Of a stretch of 32,000 bases of DNA, positions 263 to 31,959 are shown in pieces. Location of the stretch: the NCBI RefSeq assembly GCF_008065095.1, contig NZ_CP042911.1:5190001-5222000 (forward strand), in the 5' to 3' direction. The number at the start of each line of letters is the position of its first letter. Position 1 is the stretch's first letter. The stretch is from Gemmata obscuriglobus (GTDB taxonomy: Bacteria; Planctomycetota; Planctomycetia; Gemmatales; Gemmataceae). Under the pieces are notes generated by a model. The model saw only the letters and a program-made list of their open reading frames with translations, did not search any database and was not told the origin of the DNA. Made by a program: the position numbers and the translations under genes.

Positions 263-352
263 GCCGCATGTGGAGCTCACCTGCTCGCGCGCCCTGGAGG
301 GGGCGATCCCCGAGTTCTGCATGCGCGAGTCTGGTGCAGCGGAGGGTTCGGC
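263..352 (-). other. attC: attC recombination site, divergent type B (copy 1)
   Basis: 90 bp. GCCGCAT-N8-CACCTGCTCGCGC...GCGCGAGTCTGGTG-N9-GTTCGGC. Same box layout as type A but different arms and loop. Near-identical to 16674..16763. Confidence 0.6.
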
Positions 353-409
353 CCCGCGCCCCACCACGCCGAACATGGGCTGCCCGTGAAGGTGAGCTCC
401 ACATTCGGC
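263..409. repeat. 147-bp nested palindrome: type B attC plus a second, inverted copy of its left arm
   Basis: GCCGCATGTGGAGCTCACC (263..281) pairs with GGTGAGCTCCACATTCGGC (391..409), 18/19. An inner GTTCGGC(346..352)/GCCGAAC(368..374) pair is also present. Confidence 0.7.
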
Positions 410-548
410 CCCGCTCATGCAGCCCGGCAGATGAGCTACACCGATCCGCTCGCGCCTCGGGGGTGGGCGCGGGTCGGGCCAGCCACTTGGGATGGGGGGC
501 TGGCTACCCTATCGACATCGCGCCCACCCCCGTGGGTCTCGGCGCGGG
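353..548 (-). other. short ORF-less cassette, type B content (copy 1), dominated by a long hairpin
   Basis: 196 bp between two attC sites with no credible ORF. Perfect 13-bp arms GGGGGTGGGCGCG (459..471) / CGCGCCCACCCCC (519..531) enclose an inner 7-bp stem GCCAGCC/GGCTGGC (478..484 / 498..504). Duplicated at 16764..16959. Confidence 0.6.
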
Positions 549-639
549 GCCGAACAATGAGCTCACCTGCACCGCCATCACCGGATGAGCGGTGCGTCCC
601 AAGTCCGATGGCGGTGTCAGGTGCAGCGCTGGGTTCGGC
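549..639 (-). other. attC: attC recombination site (type A)
   Basis: 91 bp. GCCGAAC-N8-CACCTGCACCGCC-loop33-GGCGGTGtCAGGTG-N9-GTTCGGC. Spacer variant CAGCGCTGG. Confidence 0.85.
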
Positions 640-3894: not shown

Positions 3895-4149
3895 CTACAA
3901 GGATGGACGCGGCGGGTCGGGCCAGTTGGCCTCAGACTCGCACTCACGCTGGTACTCCCGCCACGACCGCAACCCTTGGGCCCGCCGCTTGGCGTTGCCC
4001 TTGCGCCGCCGCCGCTCCTCGCACCGCTTGGTGAACTCGTCGTGCCAGCGGTACTCGTACATCACGTTCGCCGACCGGACGTACTTGCGGAACCTCCGCA
4101 GGGCCGACGTGAGCGACTCGCCCTCGCAGACCTCCACTCGGACACCCAT
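3895..4149 (-). CDS. ribosomal protein bS21-like protein (copy 1)
   Basis: 84-aa track ORF. VEVCEGESLTSALRRFRKYVRSANVMYEYRWHDEFTKRCEERRRRKGNAKRRAQ aligns by eye with the bS21 core (E. coli ...[43 protein letters not shown]). Identical to 16367..16621. Confidence 0.65.
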   Translation of the reverse strand: MGVRVEVCEGESLTSALRRFRKYVRSANVMYEYRWHDEFTKRCEERRRRKGNAKRRAQGLRSWREYQRECESEANWPDPPRPSL

Positions 4150-5283: not shown

Positions 5284-5638
5284 TCGATGCCCTCGGGGGT
5301 TCCGGGCGCGCTCAGTGTCGCGCATCTGCGGATGCCCGGGCCACCGATGCGGCCGAGCGGAGCCCCACCGACTCGACCCGCCGGGTCGCGACACACCGGA
5401 GGCCACACACCACCGACACCTCGCGGCGATGAGCCGCGCCAGACACCCACGGGCACCACGCGGAGCACCACCGCCACGATCCGCCGTGTCCCTACGCACC
5501 ACCGGCCACCCCCAACCGCCACTCGCGGCGACGAGCCGGGCGGGCCACCGGCGGGCACGACGCGGAGCCCGAACCGCAGGGTTCACCACCGCGGACCACA
5601 CGCCCACGGCCGCACGCGCGCTCCTGCACGCGAGGGTG
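5284..5638 (-). repeat. ORF-less repetitive cassette, R family, 2 units
   Basis: 355 bp; R head, two units, R tail. Confidence 0.75.
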
Positions 5639-5729: not shown

Positions 5730-6087
5730 TCGCTTACCTCGGCGGTTCCGGGCCTCACGCTGAGCGCCGCGCATCCGCTGTGCGCGTGCCACCAATGCGA
5801 GCGTGCGGAGCACCACCGATCCGACGTACCGTGCCGCGGCCCACCGGAGGCCGGCACCAACCGCCACCCGCGGCGACGAGCCGCGCCAGCCCTGATCGGC
5901 ACCACGCGGAGCCCCACCGACTCGCGCCACCGTGTCCCCACTCACTGCCCGCCACGCCCAACCGCACCTCGCGGCGATGAGCCGCGCCGGCCACTCGCGG
6001 GCACCACGCGGAGCCCGACACGCACTGTTCACCTTTGCGGACCATACGTTCAGCGCCGCCGCACGCGCGATCGAGCGCCTTGGGGTT
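5730..6087 (-). repeat. ORF-less repetitive cassette, R family, 2 units
   Basis: 358 bp; R head, two units, R tail. Confidence 0.75.
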
Positions 6088-6178: not shown

Positions 6179-6515
6179 TCGCTCACATCCGCGCCGCGCA
6201 TCCGCGGATGCCCGCCCACCGGTGCGACCGGGCGGAGCACCACCGAACCACGGCGCCGTGTCCCGACACATCGGGGGCCACCCACCACCGCCACACGCGG
6301 CGATGAGCCGCGCCCGCAACCGATCGGTCTCAGCGGAGCACCACCGACCCGCACCACCGTGTCCCCATCCGCACCCGGCCACAACCACCGCAAGCTCGCG
6401 GCGATGAGCCGCGCCAGGCGCCCATAGGCACCACGCGGAGCCACCACTGACGCGCGGGGCTTACTCACGCGGACTACACGCCCAGCACCGCCGCACGCGC
6501 ATGCACGCGATGGTG
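6179..6515 (-). repeat. ORF-less repetitive cassette, R family, 2 units
   Basis: 337 bp. The first ~226 bp are identical by eye to 13730..13955, then the two diverge. Confidence 0.75.
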
Positions 6516-6606: not shown

Positions 6607-6963
6607 TCGCTGCCGTCCGCGGTTCGGGGTCGCACGTCCGCGCCGCGCATCCGCGGAAGCCCGTGCCACCGATGCGGGCGAGCGGAGCGCCACCGACCCG
6701 ATGCACCGTGTCCCGGCCCACCGGAGGCCACGCCCAATCGCACCTCGCGGCGACGAGCCGCGCCGGCCGCCCACGGGCACCACGCGGAGCACCACCGACA
6801 CGAAACGCCGTGTCCCATGACACCGCCGGCCACGCCCAACCGCACCTCGCGGCGATGAGCCGCGCCACACGCCCACGGGCACCACGCGGAGCCCGACACG
6901 CGCCGTTCACCCACGCGGACCACACGCACGGCACCGCCGCACGCGCGATCGAGCAACTCGGGT
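6607..6963 (-). repeat. ORF-less repetitive cassette, R family, 2 units
   Basis: 357 bp; R head, two units, R tail. Confidence 0.75.
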
Positions 6964-12168: not shown

Positions 12169-12501
12169 TTCTGCGCGGGCCGTTGCGGTTCCGCGGAGCC
12201 CGCGCTCGTACCGCGCATCCGCGGAGCCACCACCGACCCGCACCACCGTGTCGCGGCCCACCGGTGGCCGCCCAACACCGCACCTCGCGGCGATGAGCCG
12301 CGCCGACCACCCACCGGCACCACGCGGAGCACCACCGACCCGCACCACCGTGTCCCCACCCACACCGGGCCACGACCACCCGCACCTCGCGGCGGTGAGC
12401 CGCGCCCACCCCGACCGGCACCACGCGGAGCCCGACGCGCGGGGTTTACCACCGCGGACCACATGCCCACCGCCGCACGCGCGCTCATGCACGCGATGGT
12501 T
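12169..12501 (-). repeat. ORF-less repetitive cassette, R family, 2 units
   Basis: 333 bp; TTCTGCGC-type head; two units; R tail. Confidence 0.75.
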
Positions 12502-13155: not shown

Positions 13156-13162
13156 GTCTGGG

Positions 13163-13618
13163 CTACCCCCGCCAGACCACCTGCACGCCGGCAAGCTCGA
13201 TGCCGCCTGGCCCGGCGGCGAGTTGCCCGGCCTTGCGGTTAAGCAGGGCCGGCCCGAAGCACTCGCCGAACCCGACCCGCTCCCCGCAGTGCAGGAAGCT
13301 GACGTACGGCCAGCGGTAGAACGACCCCCGCACCTTCTCGGGGGCGTCTCGCCAGCCGAGCAACTGGCCGGGCCGGCCGCACTCCCGTACCCCGGCGTCC
13401 GTCACCTCCCACCACTGGAAGGTGCTGCCGTGGTCGAACTGCCCGCGCTCCAGGTCGCCGTCCGCGACTTGGTAGATGTACAGCGCGTCGAACGCGGCGA
13501 GGTCGGCGACGCGGACCCCGAATGAGTCGGCCACGTAGTCGAGGAAACGCGGCGTGCGGTGCCACGACCAGACGTCGGCCAGTGCCTCAGCGACCGAACG
13601 CGACGGCTGCGGCTCCAT
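13163..13618 (-). CDS. hypothetical cassette protein, 151 aa (copy 1 of 3)
   Basis: Complete track ORF with ATG 10 nt after GAGGG. Protein is identical to 14773..15228 and differs at one residue from 26322..26777. Confidence 0.65.
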   Translation of the reverse strand: MEPQPSRSVAEALADVWSWHRTPRFLDYVADSFGVRVADLAAFDALYIYQVADGDLERGQFDHGSTFQWWEVTDAGVRECGRPGQLLGWRDAPEKVRGSFYRWPYVSFLHCGERVGFGECFGPALLNRKAGQLAAGPGGIELAGVQVVWRG

Positions 13619-13638
13619 CGGTCGAGCGCCCTCGGGTG

Positions 13639-13729: not shown

Positions 13730-14063
13730 TCGCTCACATCCGCGCCGCGCATCCGCGGATGCCCGCCCACCGGTGCGACCGGGCGGAGCACCACCGAACC
13801 ACGGCGCCGTGTCCCGACACATCGGGGGCCACCCACCACCGCCACACGCGGCGATGAGCCGCGCCCGCAACCGATCGGTCTCAGCGGAGCACCACCGACC
13901 CGCACCACCGTGTCCCCATCCGCACCCGGCCACAACCACCGCAAGCTCGCGGCGAAGAGCCGCGCCAGCCCCAACCGGCACCACGCGAAGCCCGACGCGC
14001 GCGGTTCACCACCGCGGACCACACGCACACCGCCGCACGCGCGCCCTCATGCACGCGATGGTT
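13730..14063 (-). repeat. ORF-less repetitive cassette, R family, 2 units
   Basis: 334 bp. The left ~226 bp are identical to R cassette 6179..6515; the right part differs. Confidence 0.75.
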
Positions 14064-14765: not shown

Positions 14766-14772
14766 GTCTGGG

Positions 14773-15228
14773 CTACCCCCGCCAGACCACCTGCACGCCG
14801 GCAAGCTCGATGCCGCCTGGCCCGGCGGCGAGTTGCCCGGCCTTGCGGTTAAGCAGGGCCGGCCCGAAGCACTCGCCGAACCCGACCCGCTCCCCGCAGT
14901 GCAGGAAGCTGACGTACGGCCAGCGGTAGAACGACCCCCGCACCTTCTCGGGGGCGTCTCGCCAGCCGAGCAACTGGCCGGGCCGGCCGCACTCCCGTAC
15001 CCCGGCGTCCGTCACCTCCCACCACTGGAAGGTGCTGCCGTGGTCGAACTGCCCGCGCTCCAGGTCGCCGTCCGCGACTTGGTAGATGTACAGCGCGTCG
15101 AACGCGGCGAGGTCGGCGACGCGGACCCCGAATGAGTCGGCCACGTAGTCGAGGAAACGCGGCGTGCGGTGCCACGACCAGACGTCGGCCAGTGCCTCAG
15201 CGACCGAACGCGACGGCTGCGGCTCCAT
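14773..15228 (-). CDS. hypothetical cassette protein, 151 aa (copy 2 of 3)
   Basis: Identical translation to 13163..13618. Confidence 0.65.
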   Translation of the reverse strand: MEPQPSRSVAEALADVWSWHRTPRFLDYVADSFGVRVADLAAFDALYIYQVADGDLERGQFDHGSTFQWWEVTDAGVRECGRPGQLLGWRDAPEKVRGSFYRWPYVSFLHCGERVGFGECFGPALLNRKAGQLAAGPGGIELAGVQVVWRG

Positions 15229-15248
15229 CGGTCGAGCGCCCTCGGGTG

Positions 15249-15339: not shown

Positions 15340-15672
15340 TTCTGCGCCCCGCGCCGCGCATCCGCGGAGCCCGCCCACCGACGCGGCCGAGCGGAGCCAC
15401 CACCGACCCGCACCACCGTGCCGCGGCACACCGGTGGCCGCCCACCACCGACACCCGCGGCGATGAGCCGCGCCCGGCACCCACGGGCACCACGCGGAGC
15501 ACCACCGCCACGAACCGCCGTGTCCCCCCCCGCCACCGGCCACGCCCACCGCAAGCTCGCGGCGACGAGCCGCGCCGGTCGCACTCGGGCACCACGCGGA
15601 GCCCGATACTCGCCGTTTACCACCGCGGACCACACGCACACCACCGCACGCGCCATCGAGCGGCCTCGGGGT
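15340..15672 (-). repeat. ORF-less repetitive cassette, R family, 2 units
   Basis: 333 bp; TTCTGCGC-type head; two units; R tail. Confidence 0.75.
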
Positions 15673-16366: not shown

Positions 16367-16621
16367 CTACAAGGATGGACGCGGCGGGTCGGGCCAGTTG
16401 GCCTCAGACTCGCACTCACGCTGGTACTCCCGCCACGACCGCAACCCTTGGGCCCGCCGCTTGGCGTTGCCCTTGCGCCGCCGCCGCTCCTCGCACCGCT
16501 TGGTGAACTCGTCGTGCCAGCGGTACTCGTACATCACGTTCGCCGACCGGACGTACTTGCGGAACCTCCGCAGGGCCGACGTGAGCGACTCGCCCTCGCA
16601 GACCTCCACTCGGACACCCAT
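16367..16621 (-). CDS. ribosomal protein bS21-like protein (copy 2)
   Basis: 84-aa track ORF identical to 3895..4149. Confidence 0.65.
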   Translation of the reverse strand: MGVRVEVCEGESLTSALRRFRKYVRSANVMYEYRWHDEFTKRCEERRRRKGNAKRRAQGLRSWREYQRECESEANWPDPPRPSL

Positions 16622-16673: not shown

Positions 16674-16763
16674 GCCGAATGTGGAGCTCACCTGCTCGCG
16701 CGCCCTGGAGGGGGCGATCCCCGAGTTCTGCATGCGCGAGTCTGGTGCAGCGGAGGGTTCGGC
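16674..16763 (-). other. attC: attC recombination site, divergent type B (copy 2)
   Basis: 90 bp. GCCGAAT-N8-CACCTGCTCGCGC...GCGCGAGTCTGGTG-N9-GTTCGGC. Confidence 0.6.
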
Positions 16764-16820
16764 CCCGCGCCCCACCACGCCGAACATGGGCTGCCCGTGA
16801 AGGTGAGCTCCACATTCGGC
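16674..16820. repeat. 147-bp nested palindrome: type B attC plus a second, inverted copy of its left arm
   Basis: GCCGAATGTGGAGCTCACC (16674..16692) pairs perfectly with GGTGAGCTCCACATTCGGC (16802..16820). An inner GTTCGGC(16757..16763)/GCCGAAC(16779..16785) pair is also present. Confidence 0.7.
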
Positions 16821-16959
16821 CCCGCTCATGCAGCCCGGCAGATGAGCTACACCGATCCGCTCGCGCCTCGGGGGTGGGCGCGGGTCGGGCCAGCCACTTG
16901 GGATGGGGGGCTGGCTACCCTATCGACATCGCGCCCACCCCCGTGGGTCTCGGCGCGGG
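16764..16959 (-). other. short ORF-less cassette, type B content (copy 2), dominated by a long hairpin
   Basis: Duplicate of 353..548. The 13-bp perfect-arm hairpin is at 16870..16942. Confidence 0.6.
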
Positions 16960-17050
16960 GCCGAACATAAAGCTCACCTGCACCGCCCCCTCCCAGGGAG
17001 CGATGCGTCACAAACTCGCGGGCGGTGTCAGGTGCAGCGCCGGGTTCGGC
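16960..17050 (-). other. attC: attC recombination site (type A)
   Basis: 91 bp; loop CCCTCCCAGGGAGCGATGCG. Confidence 0.85.
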
Positions 17051-17403
17051 TCGCTCCGCACCGCGGTTCCTGGCCACGGGCCGAGCGTCGCGCATCCGCG
17101 GAGCCCGTGCCACCGGTGCGGGCGTGCGGAGCACCACCGACTCGACGCACCGTGTCGCGGCCCACCGGAGGCCACCCACCACCGCACCTCGCGGCGATGA
17201 GCCGCGCCAGGCACCCACGGGCACCACGCGGAGCACCACCGACTCGAACCGCCGTGTCCCCACGCGCCCCCGGCCACGCCCACCCGCACTTCGCGGCGAC
17301 GAGCCGCGCCAACCACCGACCGGCACCACGCGGAGCCACCACCGTCTGATGCCCCGCGGACCACACGCCCACCGCCGCCCGCGCGCTCCAGAACGCCCGG
17401 GTG
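17051..17403 (-). repeat. ORF-less repetitive cassette, R family, 2 units
   Basis: 353 bp; R head, two units, R tail. Confidence 0.75.
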
Positions 17404-17493: not shown

Positions 17494-17954
17494 TCGCTCA
17501 CATCCGCGGTTCGGGGGCACACGCCGAGCACCGCGGCTCCGTGGATGCCCGCGGCACCGGTGCGGCCCTGCGGAGCATCACCGACTCCGCGCCCCGTGTC
17601 CCGGCCCACCGAGGGCCACCCACCACCGACACCTCGCGGCGGTGAGCCGCGCCCGCCACCAACGGCGCCACGCGGAGCACCACCGACACGACCCGCCGTG
17701 TCCCGGCACACCGGAGGCCACGCCCACCACCGCACCTCGCGGCGATGAGCCGCGCCGACCACCCACGGGCCACACGCGGAGCACCACCGACCCGCACCGC
17801 CGTGTCCCGACACATCGGAGGCCACGCCCAACCGCAAGCTCGCGGCGATGAGTCGCGCCAGACCCGACCGGCACCACGCGAAGCCCGACGCGCGCGGTTC
17901 ACCACCGCGGACCACACGCACACCGCCGCACGCGCGCTCCTGCACGCGATGGTT
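17494..17954 (-). repeat. ORF-less repetitive cassette, R family, 3 units
   Basis: 461 bp. Three tandem ~102-105-nt units start near 17570, 17672 and 17776. Confidence 0.75.
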
Positions 17955-18044: not shown

Positions 18045-18404
18045 TCGCTCGCCTCCGCGGTTCCGGGCGACACGCCGAGCTTGGCGCATCCGCGGAACCC
18101 GCGGCACCGGTGCGGCCGAGCGGAGCCCCACCGACTCGAATCGCCGTGTCGCGGCCCACCGGTGGCCACCCATCACCGCACCTCGCGGCGACGAGCCGCG
18201 CCCGCCCTGACGCGCGCCACGCGGAGCACCACCGACCCGAACCGCCGTGTCCCCACCCGCACCCCGGCCACGCCCAACCACACCTCGCGGCGACGAGCCG
18301 CGCCCGCCCCGACCGGCACCACGCGGAGCCACCACCGACGCGTGGGCGTCACCTTCGCGGACCACACGCCCACCACCGCACGCGCGATCCAGAACGCGAA
18401 GGTG
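18045..18404 (-). repeat. ORF-less repetitive cassette, R family, 2 units
   Basis: 360 bp; R head, two units, R tail. Confidence 0.75.
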
Positions 18405-18498: not shown

Positions 18499-18978
18499 TC
18501 AGCGCCAACGCCCGCGAGGCCACACGCCCCAGACGGTGGCCGGCCCGGAACGCGGCGGCCGTGCCTCCGCCCATGTGGACAGGCGGAGCGGCAGATACGC
18601 CCCGCCCGCCTCGAAGCTGGTCCCGGACGCGAACTCGACCCGGTACCGCGCCCCGTCCCGCGCGGCGAACCGCAACTCCGGGTGCCACGTCTCGTGCTCC
18701 CCGCCGACCCACAGCCCGAACCACGACTGGCCGGAGTCGGGGTAGCGCGCCTCGGGCATGACCAGCCGGACCCCGGTGTAGTCGACAGCCAGGACCTGTG
18801 GGACTGGGGCACCCTCCGCGACCAAGGCCACCCCGTACGGGAAGACTGCCGCGTCGGCTTCGTTGGTGCAATGGGCGTAGAAGTGGAAGTCCCACCCACC
18901 GCCCGCCACCGGCGCGAACCACGCGATGAGGACGCGGAAGTCGGTCGGGCCAAGCTGCAACTCGCCGCATACCTCCAC
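18499..18978 (-). CDS. hypothetical cassette protein
   Basis: 159-aa track ORF with a GTG start 19 nt after the attC. Aromatic-rich, non-repetitive composition. It stops 3 nt before the attC. Confidence 0.55.
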   Translation of the reverse strand: MEVCGELQLGPTDFRVLIAWFAPVAGGGWDFHFYAHCTNEADAAVFPYGVALVAEGAPVPQVLAVDYTGVRLVMPEARYPDSGQSWFGLWVGGEHETWHPELRFAARDGARYRVEFASGTSFEAGGAYLPLRLSTWAEARPPRSGPATVWGVWPRGRWR

Positions 18979-19088: not shown

Positions 19089-19425
19089 TTCTGCGCCCAC
19101 CGTCGCGGTTCCGCGGAGCCCGCGCCCGCGCCGCGCATCCGCGGAGCCACCACCGACCCGCACCACCGTGCCGCGGCACACCGGTGGCCGCCCACCACCG
19201 ACACCCGCGGCGGTGAGCCGCGCCCGCCAACCACGGGCACCACGCGGAGCACCACCGACCCGCACCACCGTGTCCCCACCCACACCGGGCCACGACCACC
19301 CGCACCTCGCGGCGGCGAGCCGCGCCAACCACCAGCAGGCCACACGCGGAGCCCGACACCCGGGGTTCACCCACGCGGACCACACGCCCACTACCGCCGC
19401 ACGCGCGCTCCTGCACGCGATGGTT
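19089..19425 (-). repeat. ORF-less repetitive cassette, R family, 2 units
   Basis: 337 bp; TTCTGCGC-type head; two units; R tail. Confidence 0.75.
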
Positions 19426-22093: not shown

Positions 22094-22345
22094 TCGCGGA
22101 CCACCGCGGTTCCGGGCACACGCTCCGCACCGCAGCTCCGCGGAGCCCGCGCCCCGGTGCGGCCCTGCGGAGCACCACCGACCCGCATCACCGTGCCGCC
22201 GCACACCGGAGGCCACGCCCAACCGCACCTCGCGGCGATGAGCCGCGCCACACACCGGCGGGCACCACGCGGAGCCCGACACCGGAGTTCACCCACGCGG
22301 ACCACACACGCGCGCGCCGCACGCGCACTCATGCACGCTTGGGTG
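22094..22345 (-). repeat. ORF-less repetitive cassette, R family, 1 unit
   Basis: 252 bp; head, a single unit, tail. Confidence 0.75.
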
Positions 22346-23094: not shown

Positions 23095-23451
23095 TCGCTG
23101 CCGTCCGCGGTTCCGGGCGACACGCCGAGCGCCGCGCATCTGCGGATGCCCGCGGCACCGGTGCGACCGGGCGGAGTGCTACCGACTCGATGCGCCGTGT
23201 CCCGGCCCATCGAGGGCCACGCCCACCGCTACACGCGGCGACGAGCCGCGCCCCTACCCACGGGCACCACGCGGAGCGCCACCGACCCGAACCGCCGTGT
23301 CCCCACACACCGCCGGCCACGCCCAACCGCACCTCGCGGCGACGAGCCGCGCCAGCACCGACCGGCACCACGCGAAGCCCGACACGCGAGACTCACCACC
23401 GCGGACCACACGCTCAGCGCCGCCGCACGCGCCCTCATGCCCTCGGGGGTT
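23095..23451 (-). repeat. ORF-less repetitive cassette, R family, 2 units
   Basis: 357 bp; R head, two units, R tail. Confidence 0.75.
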
Positions 23452-23539
23452 GCCGAACTTCGGAGCTCAGGCGCGCGCGGCTGGATAAAGCTGCGCTCCC
23501 GAGCCGCGACCGCGCGTCGCCTGCAGCGTCTGGTTCGGC
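23452..23539 (-). other. attC: attC recombination site, divergent type C
   Basis: 88 bp. GCCGAAC-N8-CAGGCGCGCGCGG...CCGCGCGtCGCCTG-N8-GTTCGGC. The unpaired T sits on the same arm as in type A. Confidence 0.6.
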
Positions 23540-23606
23540 GGCGCATCACACTTCGCAGGCTTTGCGAGGATGTGACGCACCCCGCGCCTGAGCTACGAGG
23601 TTCGGC
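23452..23606. repeat. 155-bp nested palindrome: type C attC plus a second, inverted copy of its left arm
   Basis: GCCGAACTTCGGAGCTCAGGCGCG (23452..23475) pairs with CGCGCCTGAGCTACGAGGTTCGGC (23583..23606), 22/24. An imperfect hairpin lies between them at about 23541..23580. Confidence 0.65.
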
Positions 23607-23749
23607 CTGGTCGCGCCGAGCCCCGAGTTCGCGGGACCACCACCCCGGGCCGGGTTCCGGGGCGGCGCCGTCGCGCTTGGGAGGGGGGCGACGGGTCCCC
23701 ACACTGTGCCGCACCGGAACCCGCGGTTGCAGAGAACCGGCGCGACCAG
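23540..23749 (-). other. short ORF-less cassette, type C content, dominated by a ~145-nt hairpin
   Basis: No credible ORF. Perfect 13-bp closing stem CCTGGTCGCGCCG (23606..23618) / CGGCGCGACCAGG (23738..23750), with further internal pairing such as CCGGGTTCCGG / CCGGAACCCG. Confidence 0.55.
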
Positions 23750-23840
23750 GCCGAACGAACAGCTCACCTGCACCGCCATCACCGGATGAGCGGTGCGTCC
23801 CAAACCCGATGGCGGTGTCAGGTGCAGCGCCGGGTTCGGC
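23750..23840 (-). other. attC: attC recombination site (type A)
   Basis: 91 bp; canonical type A boxes. Confidence 0.85.
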
Positions 23841-24973: not shown

Positions 24974-25331
24974 TCGCTCGCCTCCGCGGTTCCGAGCGAC
25001 ACGTCCAGCGCCGCGCATCCGCGGAGCCCGGGCCACCGGTGCGGCCGAGCGGAGCAGCACCGACCCGACGCGCCGTGCGCGGCCCATCGGAGGCCGGCCA
25101 CCACCGCACCTCGCGGCGACGAGCCGCGCCCGCCCTGACGCGCGCCCCGCGGAGCACCACCGACCCGGACCGCCGTGTCCCCACCCGCCGACGGCCACGC
25201 CCAACCGCACCGCGCGGCGGCGAGCCGCGCCACACACCCACGGGCGCCACGCGGAGCGCCACACCACCGCCGGACGCCCCGCGGACCACACGCCCAGCTC
25301 TGCCGCACGCGCCCTCATGCACGCGATGGTA
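24974..25331 (-). repeat. ORF-less repetitive cassette, R family, 2 units
   Basis: 358 bp; R head, two units, R tail. Confidence 0.75.
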
Positions 25332-26314: not shown

Positions 26315-26321
26315 GTCTGGG

Positions 26322-26777
26322 CTACCCCCGCCAGACCACCTGCACGCCGGCAAGCTCGATGCCGCCTGGCCCGGCGGCGAGTTGCCCGGCCTTGCGGTTG
26401 AGCAGGGCCGGCCCGAAGCACTCGCCGAACCCGACCCGCTCCCCGCAGTGCAGGAAGCTGACGTACGGCCAGCGGTAGAACGACCCCCGCACCTTCTCGG
26501 GGGCGTCTCGCCAGCCGAGCAACCGGCCGGGCCGGCCGCACTCCCGCACCCCGGCGTCCGTCACCTCCCACCACTGGAAGGTGCTGCCGTGGTCGAACTG
26601 CCCGCGCTCCAGGTCGCCGTCCGCGACTTGGTAGATGTACAGCGCGTCGAACGCGGCGAGGTCGGCGACGCGGACCCCGAATGAGTCGGCCACGTAGTCG
26701 AGGAAACGCGGCGTGCGGTGCCACGACCAGACGTCGGCCAGTGCCTCAGCGACCGAACGCGACGGCTGCGGCTCCAT
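26322..26777 (-). CDS. hypothetical cassette protein, 151 aa (copy 3 of 3)
   Basis: Differs from copies 1 and 2 by one residue (RPGQLLGW to RPGRLLGW) plus a few synonymous changes. Its downstream attC loop differs from that of copies 1 and 2. Confidence 0.65.
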   Translation of the reverse strand: MEPQPSRSVAEALADVWSWHRTPRFLDYVADSFGVRVADLAAFDALYIYQVADGDLERGQFDHGSTFQWWEVTDAGVRECGRPGRLLGWRDAPEKVRGSFYRWPYVSFLHCGERVGFGECFGPALLNRKAGQLAAGPGGIELAGVQVVWRG

Positions 26778-26797
26778 CGGTCGAGCGCCCTCGGGTG

Positions 26798-29448: not shown

Positions 29449-29539
29449 GCCGAACGGCGGAGTTCAGCTGCGAGCGGACCCGGTATGCGGTCCGTCCCTG
29501 TAGCGACCTTGGGCTCGCTGCTGCAACTTAGGGTTCGGG
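29449..29539 (-). other. attC: attC recombination site, divergent type D
   Basis: 91 bp. GCCGAAC-N7-GTTCAGCTGCGAGC...GCTCGCTGCTGCAAC-N5-GTTCGGG. The arms are imperfectly complementary with an extra base on the right arm. Confidence 0.5.
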
Positions 29540-29591
29540 TGCGTGGCGGGGCGGATGAAGCCCCGCTCGCAGTTGAGCTCCGCCGTTCGGC
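29449..29591. repeat. 143-bp nested palindrome: type D attC plus a second, inverted copy of its left arm
   Basis: GCCGAACGGCGGAGTTCAGCTGC (29449..29471) pairs with GCAGTTGAGCTCCGCCGTTCGGC (29569..29591), 21/23. A perfect 7-bp hairpin GCGGGGC-GGATGAA-GCCCCGC sits between them at 29546..29566. Confidence 0.65.
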
Positions 29592-29730
29592 CGCGTGCCC
29601 CCGGACGCCCCGTAGCTGAACCCACCCAGACCGCCTTCGCCGCAGGGGTCGGCGCGGGCGGTGCCACCTACTCGGATCGGGGAGGGGCCACCCGCCGGTC
29701 GCGCCGACCCTCTGCGGGTCACGCCACGCG
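29540..29730 (-). other. short ORF-less cassette, type D content, with a 78-nt hairpin
   Basis: No credible ORF. CCGCAGGGGTCGGCGCG (29640..29656) pairs with CGCGCCGACCCTCTGCGG (29700..29717) with one bulge. Confidence 0.55.
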
Positions 29731-29821
29731 GCCGAACGAACAGCTCACCTGCACCGCCATCACCCGATAAGCGATGCGTCCCGGAACAGATGGCGGTGTC
29801 AGGTGCAGCGCCGGGTTCGGC
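29731..29821 (-). other. attC: attC recombination site (type A)
   Basis: 91 bp; canonical type A boxes. Confidence 0.85.
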
Positions 29822-30156
29822 TTCTGCGCCCACCGTCGCGGTTCCGCGGAGCCCGCGCTCGTACCGCGGATCCGCGGAGCCACCACCGACCCGCACCACC
29901 GTGCCGCGGTACACCGGAGGCCACCCCCCACCTCACCTCGCGGCGACGAGCCGCGCCCGCCCTAACGCGCACCACGCGGAGCACCACCGACCCGACCCGC
30001 CGTGTCCCGAGGCACCGCCAGCCGCGCCCAACCGCACCTCGCGGCGACGAGCCGCGCCCACCCCGACCGGCACCACGCGGAGCCCGACGCGCCGGCGTCA
30101 CCTTCGCGGATCACACGCCCACCGCCGCCGCACGCGCGATCGAGCGCCTCGGGGTT
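29822..30156 (-). repeat. ORF-less repetitive cassette, R family, 2 units
   Basis: 335 bp; TTCTGCGC-type head; two units; R tail. Confidence 0.75.
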
Positions 30157-30247: not shown

Positions 30248-30490
30248 CTTGAGCCTAGTCCTTGCCAAGCACCAAGTCCACCACTCGAAAGCCCCGGACG
30301 TGCGGACCGGAGCTGCGGCAGTGACCGAGCAACTGCTCGTCCTCGCACCCGACGTCTTGGAGCGCGTCGGCCAGGACCGGCATCGCGGAGAACTCCCGCG
30401 ACACATCCATCTGACGGGCCAGCGCCAGAGCCGTGCCCGATCACCATCGCTCGGAGAAACTCACCGCCACCTTCTCAAGGAAGACTTCGA

Positions 30491-31558
30491 TAGGACTTAC
30501 GTAGTTGACTTTTGGGTAAGTAGGTATGTAGGTGCGGCGAGGTAGGTTCGCACCGCTTCGCGCACGATGGCCGTCTTGGCCGCGAACCAACTGACGCCGG
30601 ACTTGAGCCGGTGCCACTCGAGCCGCAGGAACGCGCGGATCGCGAGCCCGATGTGGACCGCTTGGGCCCGGCTCATGCGCACCTGGCACCGGTCCACGTG
30701 GCAATGCTGCTTGAGGCCCCGGTGATACTCCTCGATGCCCCACGCGTGCCCGGCCAGAACCGCACGAGTGGCCTCGTCCATGTCGAGGTCGTTGGTGATC
30801 CAATGCTCCGTGCCCCCATCACCGGTGGCGATCCGGAACGCCTTCACCAATCCGAACCCCTCCAGGTGCACCACCGTACCGGCGGCCCCGATCGGGCACC
30901 CCTCGATGGCCCGATTGCCCGTGCGATCCGGGTTCACCCGCCGGTTGCTCCGCACCCGGGTCAGGAAGTGCCACCCCAGGGCCCGCACCGCCTTCAGGTT
31001 GTCCTTGCCCGAGTACCAGGTGTCGAACAGTACCACCCGGGGCGACAGGTCCCGTCCCTTGGCGACCGCCAGCATGGCTCGGAAGTGGTCGTTCTTGGTC
31101 TCGGCTCGGGCCGGGTCGGCGAGCCGGTAATCACACGGTACCAGGGCGGCCCCGTCGGTCCACAGCAGGGTCACCAGCCCGATCCCGCTCACCACCCGGC
31201 GGTGCCGCCCGGACCAGCACCGGCGCACCAGCCCCATGTGCCGGGCGAACGGCTTGTCCAGCACCGAGTCGTCGAGCACCACGGCACCGCCCGGGCGGAC
31301 CGACGACCGGGCTTCGTCCCACAACGCCGCTGGGTCCGGTTCCAGCCGGTGCAGCAGTCGGGTGAACGCATCATGCGCGGGCGCCGTCGGATGGTCCGGT
31401 TGGGCTCGCGCGGCTTCCGCGGCCGACGCCACCTTGGGGGTGGCGATCAGGAATTGGATGTAGTCCTCGGCGCTCGCACGTGGTGCGTTCATGGCCCGAT
31501 CATAGACCAACAACACACCATGCGCAAATCCTGCGCCAGCGCAACTGCGTAAGTCCTA
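30491..31558 (-). mobile_element. insertion sequence, 1068 bp, IS4/IS701-superfamily-like
   Basis: Terminal inverted repeats TAGGACTTACG(T/C)AGTTG at 30491..30507 and 31542..31558 (16/17). They are flanked by direct TTCGA repeats (30486..30490 and 31559..31563). The element carries a single transposase ORF and interrupts a cassette ORF. Confidence 0.8.
30497..31516 (-). CDS. DDE transposase (IS4/IS701-like)
   Basis: 339-aa track ORF (GTG start; ATG at 31492 is probably the real start). Candidate acidic/DDE-type blocks include VVLDDSVLDKP, VLFDTWYSG and WGIEEYHRGLKQ. The PAHDAFTRLL block reminds me of proteins annotated as IS701-family; family assignment is from memory. The stop lies inside the left IR. 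Confidence 0.75.
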   Translation of the reverse strand: MLLVYDRAMNAPRASAEDYIQFLIATPKVASAAEAARAQPDHPTAPAHDAFTRLLHRLEPDPAALWDEARSSVRPGGAVVLDDSVLDKPFARHMGLVRRCWSGRHRRVVSGIGLVTLLWTDGAALVPCDYRLADPARAETKNDHFRAMLAVAKGRDLSPRVVLFDTWYSGKDNLKAVRALGWHFLTRVRSNRRVNPDRTGNRAIEGCPIGAAGTVVHLEGFGLVKAFRIATGDGGTEHWITNDLDMDEATRAVLAGHAWGIEEYHRGLKQHCHVDRCQVRMSRAQAVHIGLAIRAFLRLEWHRLKSGVSWFAAKTAIVREAVRTYLAAPTYLLTQKSTT

Positions 31559-31959
31559 TTCGATCTCCGTGTCGCTGTTGTTGCCCACGAACTCCCCGAA
31601 CACCCCGCCCAGGAACGACCAGCCCCCACGGTCCATCAGCACTGCGAGTTTGTCGAACGGGATGCGGACCAGCCACTCCGGTTGCTGCCCCTGGGCTACG
31701 AAGTACTCACGGGCGACAGTCACCAAGTCGTCGATGCTCCGAACTCCGGGGTCGCAAGAGTCGGCGAGGTCGCCTTCGGGTAACTCCTGCTCCTGCCACC
31801 CCCACACACCGGAGTCGGAGGCGAATGCGTCGTGGAGGCCGTCAACCTCGTCGGACCACACTTCCGGCACGTCATGTTCGCGGTAGCTGAAGACGAACTT
31901 GGCTCGCCGGCCCGCAGTGCGGTTCTTACCGTCTCCCATCCGCTGCGTCCCCTCCGGTG

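Follow-up and report, generated by a model that had tools for sequence, protein, structure and literature searches.

Why should an integron-type cassette that holds no gene carry, in addition to its own recombination site (attC), two extra copies of one arm of that site and a long hairpin closing on the next site? This question is raised by a stretch of 32,000 nucleotides from Gemmata obscuriglobus (contig NZ_CP042911.1, positions 5,190,001 to 5,222,000 of the forward strand), hereafter called the window, and within it by a cassette without open reading frame (ORF) at 23452-23756, referred to as type C. Integron cassettes are usually viewed as a gene plus a passive recombination hairpin, and ORF-less cassettes are common and mostly unexplained. 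As judged from the comparison of sequences, type C is a member of an ORF-less family in Gemmataceae and Planctomycetota that is conserved as one folded unit on the bottom strand of attC. The trait that distinguishes this family is a pair of mutually exclusive helices, each supported by covariation in the alignments, that share the crossover-bearing left arm on the strand used by the integrase. We tentatively propose that the outer of the two partner arms competes in cis with the recombinogenic fold of attC.

Organization of the type C cassette

The window has a G+C content of 70% and consists nearly entirely of an integron-type cassette array. A total of 61 attC sites were detected, of which about 57 form a homogeneous group of about 91 nt each, designated type A, with the sequence GCCGAAC-ATAAA-GCTCACCTGCACCGCC ... 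GGCGGTG-t-CAGGTG-c-A-GCGCCGG-GTTCGGC. In attC sites, the extrahelical bases mark the recombinogenic bottom strand, and crossover takes place at G|TT of R' on the top strand. Since the two extra bases of the array sites sit on the 3' arm of the window plus strand, and since the cassettes share one orientation with their ORFs on the minus strand, the plus strand of the window represents the attC bottom strand and the cassettes are read from high to low coordinates. The features of the type C cassette are as follows.

23458-23755, minus strand (cassette sense): whole type C cassette, 298 nt, with its ends set at GCCGAA|C
23452-23539, plus strand (= bottom strand): canonical bulged attC
23452-23480, plus strand: left arm, consisting of R' GCCGAAC (23452-23458), spacer TTCG and L' GAGCTCAGGCGCGCGCGG (23463-23480)
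23481-23509, plus strand: variable terminal structure (loop) of the inner attC
23510-23539, plus strand: inner right arm, consisting of L'' CCGCGCG-t-CGCCTG-c-A (23510-23525), spacer GCGTCTG and R'' GTTCGGC (23533-23539)
23541-23580, plus strand: small imperfect hairpin H2
23582-23606, plus strand: outer right arm, free of bulges and almost fully complementary to the left arm, including spacer and R box
23607-23618, plus strand: 5' half of closing stem P1, CTGGTCGCGCCG
23612-23631, plus strand: degenerate third copy of the right arm, CGCGCC-GAGCCCCGAGTTCG, overlapping the 5' half of P1 and a mere trace in type C
23651-23723, plus strand: core of the long hairpin, with P2 CGGGTTCCGGGGCGGC / GCCGCACCGGAACCCG
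23667-23674 / 23688-23694, plus strand: P4, (G)CCGTCGC / GCGACGG
23675-23687, plus strand: conserved G-rich loop GCTTGGGAGGGGG, with P4 then followed by GTCCCC (23695-23700)
23738-23749, plus strand: 3' half of closing stem P1, CGGCGCGACCAG
23750-23756, plus strand: R' box of the next (type A) attC, pairing with the outer R''; its first six bases are part of the type C cassette

The cassette ends were placed at GCCGAA|C from established knowledge of attC crossover, and should be read as the probable ends. Within the inner site, the extrahelical T23517 and C23524 stand on the same arm, and the register (7 bp, T, 6 bp, C, A, 7 nt, GTTCGGC) is that of type A. The spacers of this site are unpaired (4+4 nt versus 7 nt). 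In the R boxes GCCGAAC/GTTCGGC, the AAC/GTT cores are exact; position 4 is G/C, not Y/R as in RYYYAAC/GTTRRRY, throughout the about 60 sites of the array.

The left arm was found to have alternative partners, namely the inner arm, the outer arm and, in part, the third arm. Between the left and outer arms, 22 of 24 positions are complementary (23583-23606 against 23452-23475). The closing stem is perfect over 12 bp, but reaches 19 bp (23600-23618 / 23738-23756), the longest in the family, when the R boxes are counted, because it extends across the outer GTTCGGC on one side and, on the other, across GCCGAAC of the following attC. Altogether, near-perfect inverted repeats of 19-29 bp enclose segments of 107-119 nt.

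A sequence-only reading of this locus had listed an attC-like site at 23452..23539 with its extra T on the same arm as in type A, an imperfect hairpin at about 23541..23580, an inverted copy of the left arm at 23583..23606, and a perfect 13-bp stem closing a long hairpin with no ORF. All of the listed features were present, at or within 1-7 nt of where it had placed them. The site is a canonical attC with its boxes, bulges and spacer, T23517 has the same spacing as in the about 57 type A sites, the small hairpin was formed in minimum-free-energy folds of both DNA and RNA, and the complementarity of the inverted copy was as claimed. The stem is indeed perfect, only its length having been given too short. 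Neither the degenerate third arm nor the mutual exclusivity of the two helices had been included in that reading.

Absence of a gene was also supported. No conserved reading frame was detected, the relative frame being shifted 10-44 times per pairwise alignment among relatives, and the 161-codon open frame of type C gave no match in Pfam. Open frames traverse every family member, but on differing strands and frames, as expected at 75% G+C. As to the small hairpin, the 3' half of H2, GCAGGCTTTGCGAGGATGTGACGCA (23556-23580), is near-identical in type C and in two relatives described below (loci L130 and L017), whereas its pairing partner varies; the conservation of H2 is thus one of sequence and not of the hairpin.

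Test against chance

Shuffled sequences of this G+C content had been named in the sequence-only reading as a control that could refute it. In 300 dinucleotide shuffles of the 305-nt sequence, the longest perfect inverted repeat was 14 bp, against the 19 bp observed, and comparable nested palindromes were never reached. The folding energy corresponded to z = -6.9 for DNA (plus strand) and z = -5.2 for RNA (minus strand), with 0 of 100 shuffles as good. No excess folding (z = +0.33) was observed for the adjacent non-coding cassette of about 101-nt repeats at 23095-23451, which served as a control of equal G+C content. The double-arm pattern was found four times in the window, against an expectation of 0.00 in shuffles of the window. 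Chance origin of the palindromes is excluded by these shuffles.

One family of ORF-less cassettes

Listing of the R-type boxes in the window revealed four sites with two GTTCGGC-type boxes after one GCCGAAC, i.e., two of type B, type C and type D. At all four sites, the last box is located 146-150 nt from the next type A attC. Together with a subfamily detected beyond the window in the same genome, the relatives of type C within G. obscuriglobus are as follows (locus numbers are given where coordinates lie outside the window).

16674-16966, plus strand: type B member, 143.5 bits with the family model
263-555, plus strand: second type B copy, with degenerate R' box GCCGCAT
29449-29737, plus strand: type D member, 106.6 bits, absent from the sequence-only reading
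L134:18377-18529 and 18703-18855 (tandem pair), L132:3602-3754, L001:7241-7393: type E subfamily, same genome, beyond the window

By alignment of types B, C and D, common boxes were identified in the left arm (GCCGAAC..GGAGCTCA), in the inner arm (cAGCG...GGTTCGGC), in the outer arm (TGAGCTCC....GTTCGGCC) and in the loop of the long hairpin (CTTGGGAnGGGGGG). The long hairpin of type C (P2-P3-P4) has a loop of this CTTGGGAnGGGGGG type, GCTTGGGAGGGGG, and then YCCC in the form of GTCCCC, which is the pattern of the family. The length from GCCGAAC to the next GCCGAAC is 282-305 nt in all members.

The anatomy common to the family can be described in the order of the plus strand. The left arm consists of R' GCCGAAC, a spacer of 3-4 nt, and L', made up of GAGCTCA and some 10 bases specific to each member. 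Between it and the inner right arm lies a terminal loop or hairpin; the inner arm is composed of L'', which bears the extra T and C, then the spacer cAGCGnnnG and GTTCGGC. After H2, variable in sequence, follows the outer arm, a perfect complement of the left arm including spacer and R box. The third arm, clear in most of the other members, is complementary to the member's own L' box and continues into ACACCCA and a degenerate R box GTCCGTC. In the long hairpin P2-P3-P4, whose loop is ACTTGGGAAGGGGGG, TCCC is conserved on the 3' side, and the 3' half of P1 directly abuts the next GCCGAA. With ends at GCCGAA|C, the left/outer helix and the closing stem would join in the excised circle into a single uninterrupted duplex of about 25 bp (type B), 35 bp (D) or 37 bp (C) between two lobes.

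Two subfamilies show peculiarities of their own. The inner arm of type D has a T·T mismatch at the extra-T position, and its inner R'' is GTTCGGG. In type E, the left arm is GCCGAACCAGGAGCTGAGCTGCAA, the outer arm is complementary to it at 24 of 24 positions and the loop of the long hairpin is TTCACCAGGGTGGAGG; the family model detects this subfamily weakly (about 20 bits).

The distribution of the family was then examined on a wider scale. A pattern scan with about 21 specified bases over 596 Gb listed at least 120 loci, mostly chance matches in unrelated phyla; sorting by the requirement for a complementary left arm left 5 real loci among the matches listed. Among these matches, the same cassette was found in Gemmata sp. 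Bin_69_sub, in Gemmataceae RYN_437 (two copies), and in the metagenome-assembled genomes of Planctomycetota K_Offshore_80m and SCN18; it was also present on at least nine metagenome contigs. A scan by structure only, in which a left arm and a complement of at least 19/24 at 95-230 nt downstream were required, detected eight cassettes in 51 kb of the G. obscuriglobus array (three of type B, one of C, one of D and three of E). The outer arm is located 100-130 nt downstream of the left arm, and is complementary to it at 19-24 of 24 positions in types B, D, E and all related loci.

For a test of homology, a covariance model (R1) was constructed from the region between the outer R'' box and the next R' box of ten members, with type C left out; its E-values are rough, as the calibration was shortened. 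All known members were recovered at 104-155 bits. Type C was matched at window positions 23605-23751, full-length and on the plus strand, with 30.7 bits and an E-value of about 0.002, and represents the weakest-scoring subfamily. Two further sequences, L130:11072-11220 (39.4 bits, E 4e-5) and L017:6422-6574 (28.9 bits), were likewise recovered full-length and on the correct strand, and the remaining full-length-model matches in the searched loci stayed at or below 20.2 bits. Type C, L130 and L017 share 82% column identity and constitute the type C subfamily.

The recurrence of the layout therefore reflects common descent with conserved structure and not convergence, because the boxes are shared and type C was recovered by a model built without it. 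As far as sequence comparison goes, types B, C, D and E all belong to a single homologous ORF-less family and have diverged within it, type C the most. The claim that type C is unrelated in sequence to type B thus fell. Both structure-based scans, suggested in the sequence-only reading, recovered other members in the array and in related genomes. The family is apparently undescribed: it was not found in Rfam or in the literature searched, and in kind it belongs to integron cassettes and attC sites.

Decayed copies were also observed. The first type B copy (263-269, GCCGCAT) is fused to a neighbouring ORF, and L130 (11368-11374, minus strand) has CCCGAAT. In the L017 relative (6640-6724, minus strand), the whole left arm is swapped for a host-type left arm, the inner and outer arms being intact.

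Near-perfect inverted repeats of 19-29 bp, within an array that also contains an insertion sequence (IS) with a DDE transposase, might indicate some other inverted-repeat element: a miniature inverted-repeat transposable element (MITE) or IS remnant, an invertible switch flanked by 19-bp repeats, a fragment of a group IIC-attC intron, or chance palindromes. The arms differ among subfamilies except for the attC boxes, so that no one transposase could recognize all of them. Among the matches listed, copies were found only inside attC arrays and bounded by R boxes, always oriented as the attC sites of the host, and searches of plasmid and viral collections gave no family copy. The orientation of the module relative to the arms was the same in every copy, with no sign of inversion, and no group II intron was matched in Rfam. 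An origin of this kind is very improbable.

Covariation and the folding strand

Whether the structure itself is under selection was judged from compensatory changes. The arm helices were scored on an alignment (A3) of 13 sequences; as these sequences are related, the counts of changed pairs below do not represent independent events. The left/outer helix was paired at 96.9%, compared with 87.7% in column shuffles and 28-45% in slid alignments, and nine pairs were changed on both sides, including three spacer columns (4-5 such sequences each). For the left/inner helix, 91.6% were paired and seven pairs were changed on both sides, while its spacer was unpaired and conserved. In the module alignment (A4), the closing stem, P2 and P4 were paired at 96.4% with 12 changes on both sides, a level that none of 500 shuffles attained. 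RNAalifold independently predicted the left/outer helix as well as P1, P2 and P4.

Compensation was evident even within the type C subfamily. The closing stems are C-TGGTCGCGCC/GGCGCGACCA-G, CACGGTCGCGC/GCACGACCGTG and C-GGGTCGCGCC/CGCGTGACCC-G, with P1 changing through TGG/CCA, ACGG/CCGT and GGG/CCC. P4 is CCGTCGC/GCGACGG versus CCATCGC/GCGATGG, and the arm spacer is TTCG/CGAG versus TGCC/GGCG. Selection on structure is thus well supported by the sequences, both family-wide and within the type C subfamily. In this respect, the sequence-only reading was correct in proposing selection on structure from the recurring layout; its premise of recurrence without homology was not.

These changes bear on the possibility that the cassette is a neutral relic, formed by tandem triplication of the attC right half or by fusion of decayed cassettes, and retained as an ORF-less cassette of a selfish or junk nature. 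The right arms are indeed direct repeats in the same sense, and the third one keeps a degenerate R box GTCCGTC with a 7-nt spacer, all of which suggests that they arose by duplication. Decay is also on record within the family, as in the GCCGCAT at 263, the degenerate R' of L130 and the replaced left arm of L017, and paralogous non-coding cassettes of Vibrio have been proposed to be selfish elements (PMC1382264). Copy-correction among the right arms fails to explain the covariation, because the outer arm tracks the member-specific left spacer while the inner arm keeps a different, conserved one. Compensatory changes were found in P1, P2 and P4 in several genera, and the asymmetry of mismatches described below indicates that pairing has been selected for on one of the strands. 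The arms probably originated by tandem duplication of the right arm, but their continued covariation is not accounted for in this way, and a neutral relic is rather improbable as a full account.

The folding strand was examined from the non-Watson-Crick cells within the supported helices. When read on the plus strand, G·T was found 38 times (11 of the 38 from one column) and A·C five times. Since G·T exceeds A·C there, pairing appears to be maintained on the plus strand, that is, the bottom strand of attC. A structure formed by RNA of the minus strand (mRNA sense) was ruled out by the same asymmetry.

Some other structures were considered for the long hairpin and its surroundings. The GGG/CCC pairing predicted by RNAalifold inside the long hairpin was dropped, because all bases concerned are invariant. 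Compensation is seen in the alternative helix P3 (GTCG/CGAC, GCCGG/CCGGC, GGCC/GGCC), but MAFFT aligned this helix out of register, and it was omitted from the model. For a G-quadruplex on the plus strand, the first G runs pair with C runs that change in step (AAGGG/CCCTT in L126), and duplex is the better reading; a G-quadruplex in the hairpin loop may form. A kissing interaction between the C-rich attC loop TCCCCGAG and CTTGGGA of the hairpin loop would comprise 9 bp in type C and 7 bp in both B and L074; on inspection by eye it was lost in L016, L124, L126 and L130, and it was discarded.

The plus strand could be maintained in a folded state as RNA. The main alternative to a role in DNA is thus a structured non-coding RNA transcribed from the plus strand, antisense to the ORFs of the cassettes, with the arm copies either as part of the RNA or as a separate DNA-level feature. 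Such an RNA would account for the covariation in multiple helices together with the conserved unpaired loop ACTTGGGAAGGGGGG, the motif GTCCGTCCGCGCC and TCCC after P4, and many of the pairs are compatible with G·U on this strand. There is also precedent: ORF-less cassettes of Xanthomonas campestris encode regulatory RNAs, and those of Treponema bear promoters, some antisense (reviewed in PMC8876359). On the other hand, the helices include the crossover-bearing left arm and both ends of the cassette, and the RNA would have to start in a neighbouring cassette that is not conserved. Neither promoter nor intrinsic terminator was found by a search for sigma-70-like signals, from which planctomycete signals may differ. 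With Rfam 15, no match reached the gathering score in the window, none was obtained even at E <= 10 over 23420-23790, and only chance-level matches were given over type B. The strand that folds is exactly the strand used by the integrase, and three member-specific partner arms for each left arm are hard to rationalize for an RNA. We consider this alternative doubtful, but it deserves the most attention among the rivals; if it were correct, the family would represent a new class of integron-borne RNA.

Competition between the two folds

If the fold belongs to DNA, the left arm is faced with a choice of partners. In the partition functions calculated for DNA, linear or circular, it was paired with the outer arm at a probability of 0.73-1.0 in 11 of the 12 complete members, and with the inner arm at 0-0.2 in those members; the exception was L127. 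For type C, capture of the left arm by the outer one has a probability of 0.91-0.92. The inner attC alone is predicted to fold at 0.94 (C), 0.77 (B) and 0.82 (D), versus 0.01, 0.20 and 0.00, respectively, in the context of the cassette. For the other 56 attC sites of the window, the median was 0.85 alone and 0.81 in context, and none was captured by a downstream arm; the cause of low folding in the few ordinary sites concerned was alternatives within the attC itself. The outer R'' of type C was paired with R' of the neighbouring type A attC at 0.92, the R boxes of that site being paired at 0.05. For types B and D, it was the cassette's own R' that paired with the outer R'' (0.93-0.99), and the neighbouring attC folded normally.

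Integrases act on the folded bottom strand, and extrahelical bases, the unpaired spacer and the terminal structure govern recognition (Nivina et al. 2016, PMC5027507). The probability of the recombinogenic structure, pfold, controls the frequency of cassette excision (Loot et al. 2017, PMC5371416). We propose that, when the bottom strand is single-stranded, at the replication fork or in the excised circle, the left arm would take one partner at a time. Its pairing with the inner arm would give the bulged hairpin recognized by integron integrases, and its pairing with the outer arm a longer duplex without bulges, to which the closing stem would be joined without a break in the excised circle (some 37 bp for type C). 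Being thermodynamically favoured, the outer arm could act as a cis-encoded competitor, or 'anti-attC', that cuts the share of recombinogenic folds, and in type C it might also sequester the R' box of the neighbouring attC. The expected result would be a damped or gated excision of the cassette, with the long hairpin possibly setting or relieving the balance. This mechanism is preferred because the share of attC in the recombinogenic fold governs the excision frequency (PMC5371416), and we put the probability that the cassette carries such a competitor arm at about 0.45.

Several points weigh against this proposal. The competition was computed from nearest-neighbour energies of DNA at equilibrium. 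Folding in vivo is kinetic, and is shaped by the single-stranded DNA-binding protein (SSB) and the replisome. The inner arm is nearer to the left arm and emerges first. The third arm and the conserved unpaired nucleotides of the long hairpin, which are more like a structured RNA, are left unexplained by a competitor. The sequences in alignment A3 are related, as stated above. As to the partner recombinase, no integrase domain was detected in the genes within about 2.7 kb past the last attC at the right-hand end of the array. Removal of extrahelical bases reduced recombination of VCR2 by 50-fold, but attCoxa2 and attCaadA7 recombined well and lost strand selectivity only (PMC5027507).

Because recombination of attC survives the loss of extrahelical bases at some sites, the left/outer hairpin, which lacks bulges, might serve as a substrate and not as a lock. 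In that case, it would be the real recombination site, a 155-nt attC with a branched terminal structure that contains the inner arm, and no regulation would be involved. Long attC sites with branched terminal structures exist, such as those of the VCR (Vibrio cholerae repeat) type (PMC5371416), some attC sites without extrahelical bases recombine efficiently (PMC5027507), and the outer helix is thermodynamically dominant. The inner arm, however, keeps the exact bulge signature of the array and covaries with the left arm, which is not expected of a loop sequence. All of the 13 or more copies lie in the orientation of the host attC, an indication that a strand-selective bulged site was used at insertion. 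Such an outer site is improbable.

An extension of the competitor proposal is that the bottom strand is a single-stranded DNA (ssDNA) switch. It would toggle between a locked rod, made up of the left/outer helix and the closing stem, and the recombinogenic attC, the long hairpin with its G-rich loop being the sensor or docking site that decides the fold. We regard this version as unlikely. Its candidate inputs at the long hairpin would be the integrase, a priming or ssDNA-binding factor of the host, or a transition of the G-quadruplex type. If true, it would be the first covariation-supported, cis-encoded DNA structure regulating site-specific recombination, and the cassette might be a self-serving mini-circle adapted to life as an excised cassette.

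If the outer arm gates the folding of attC, cassettes would encode the control of their own mobility in cis. This would add a layer beside SOS induction of intI, replication orientation and attC pfold, and would explain at least one class of 'empty' cassettes. Natural variants for comparison are at hand, as the four subfamilies occur in one genome.

The cassette array and its host genome

The array as a whole extends over more than 50 kb of the G. obscuriglobus genome (CP025958.1), window position x corresponding to CP025958.1 position 2,830,374 - x in reverse complement. It overruns the window by more than 9 kb past the left end and by about 7-9 kb past the right end. At its right-hand end, lying upstream with respect to the cassette sense (L132:1-2800 = CP025958.1 about 2,788,435-2,791,200), the array is followed by a gene for a 423-aa zinc-ribbon protein, and the search on this side met only that gene and more cassettes. 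No integrase was found beside the array end in locus L129 either, where the array abuts clpB and a hybrid histidine kinase. In G. obscuriglobus, the search for an integrase covered the right-hand end of the array. The array may be a set of attC sites clustered without an integron integrase (CALIN), or the integrase may be encoded elsewhere. Integrons in Planctomycetes are known in general (PMC4889954; PMC8352920), and no paper joining Gemmata with integron and attC was found in the literature searched.

The products of the array cassettes include SUKH/SMI1-KNR4, DUF3108-like and S21-like proteins, a typical content for arrays of this kind. The last is an 84-aa protein encoded by two identical cassettes, at 16367-16621 (minus strand) and 3895-4149 (minus strand), and matches ribosomal protein S21 (PF01165, E 4e-11), an unusual cargo for an integron cassette. 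A 483-nt cassette for a 151-aa product (MEPQPSRSVAEALADVW...) is present three times with 96-100% identity (13156-13638, 14766-15248 and 26315-26797), indicating that duplication of cassettes inside the array is frequent. The IS interrupts the array at 30248-31959, with the DDE transposase gene (PF01609/PF13546, 30497-31516, minus strand) and a 127-aa ORF (31556-31939, minus strand).

A second, far more abundant class of non-coding cassettes was noted, accounting for about 1/4 to 1/3 of the cassettes. These are ORF-less and consist of a C/A-rich repeat, about 101 nt long, arranged as 2-3 units in tandem, with the consensus ...CTCGCGGCGACGAGCCGCGCC...GGCACCACGCGGAGCACCACCGACCCG..CCGCCGTGTCCCC...GGCCACGCCCA. 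Their positions are as follows.

640-895: cassette of about 101-nt repeats
1697-2029: same class
5284-5638: same class
5730-6087: same class
6179-6515: same class
6607-6963: same class
12169-12501: same class
13730-14063: same class
15340-15672: same class
17051-17403: same class
17494-17954: same class
18045-18404: same class
19089-19425: same class
22094-22345: same class
23095-23451: same class, adjacent to type C
24974-25331: same class
29822-30156: same class

Comparison with known systems

With the canonical integron cassette, type C shares an inner site (23452-23539) that has all the hallmarks of attC, in the register of the about 57 ordinary sites and in the common orientation. It differs in the absence of an ORF, its cargo consisting of the two extra right-arm copies, the closing stem and the conserved hairpin. 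In addition, its canonical hairpin is predicted to be out-competed in cis, and position 4 of the R box deviates.

A parallel in distribution is given by the paralogous ORF-less families of Vibrio (Boucher et al. 2006, PMC1382264), which are also present in multiple copies per array, conserved in relatives and absent outside the clade. Besides the selfish nature mentioned above, a function as RNA or promoter was proposed for them. The Vibrio families are set apart by description, as no conserved secondary structure, extra arms or covariation are reported for them in the accessible part of that report. They also lack sequence relationship to the Gemmata family, which belongs to another phylum and another attC type.

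The small RNA cassettes of Xanthomonas campestris and the promoter-bearing Treponema cassettes of the oral metagenome (PMC8876359, PMC6557892) are likewise ORF-less, and theirs is a demonstrated non-protein function, some being antisense. By contrast, the Gemmata cassette has no promoter-like site and no match in Rfam, and its structure spans an attC arm and both cassette ends.

Long attC sites of low pfold, such as VCRs (PMC5371416), resemble the present case in that the probability of the recombinogenic fold on the bottom strand sets the mobility of the cassette, theirs being sedentary chromosomal integrons. Low pfold is intrinsic to the VCR attC itself, whereas the attC of the Gemmata cassettes is predicted to fold well alone (0.77-0.94) and to be lowered by a separate, covarying arm.

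In mechanism, the closest analogy is with bistable switches such as attenuators and the terminator/antiterminator pairs of riboswitches, in which one segment has exclusive partners and compensatory evolution preserves both pairings. Such switches are RNAs acting in the control of transcription or translation, whereas the Gemmata structure is most simply viewed as ssDNA that would control recombination; the likeness is one of mechanism only.

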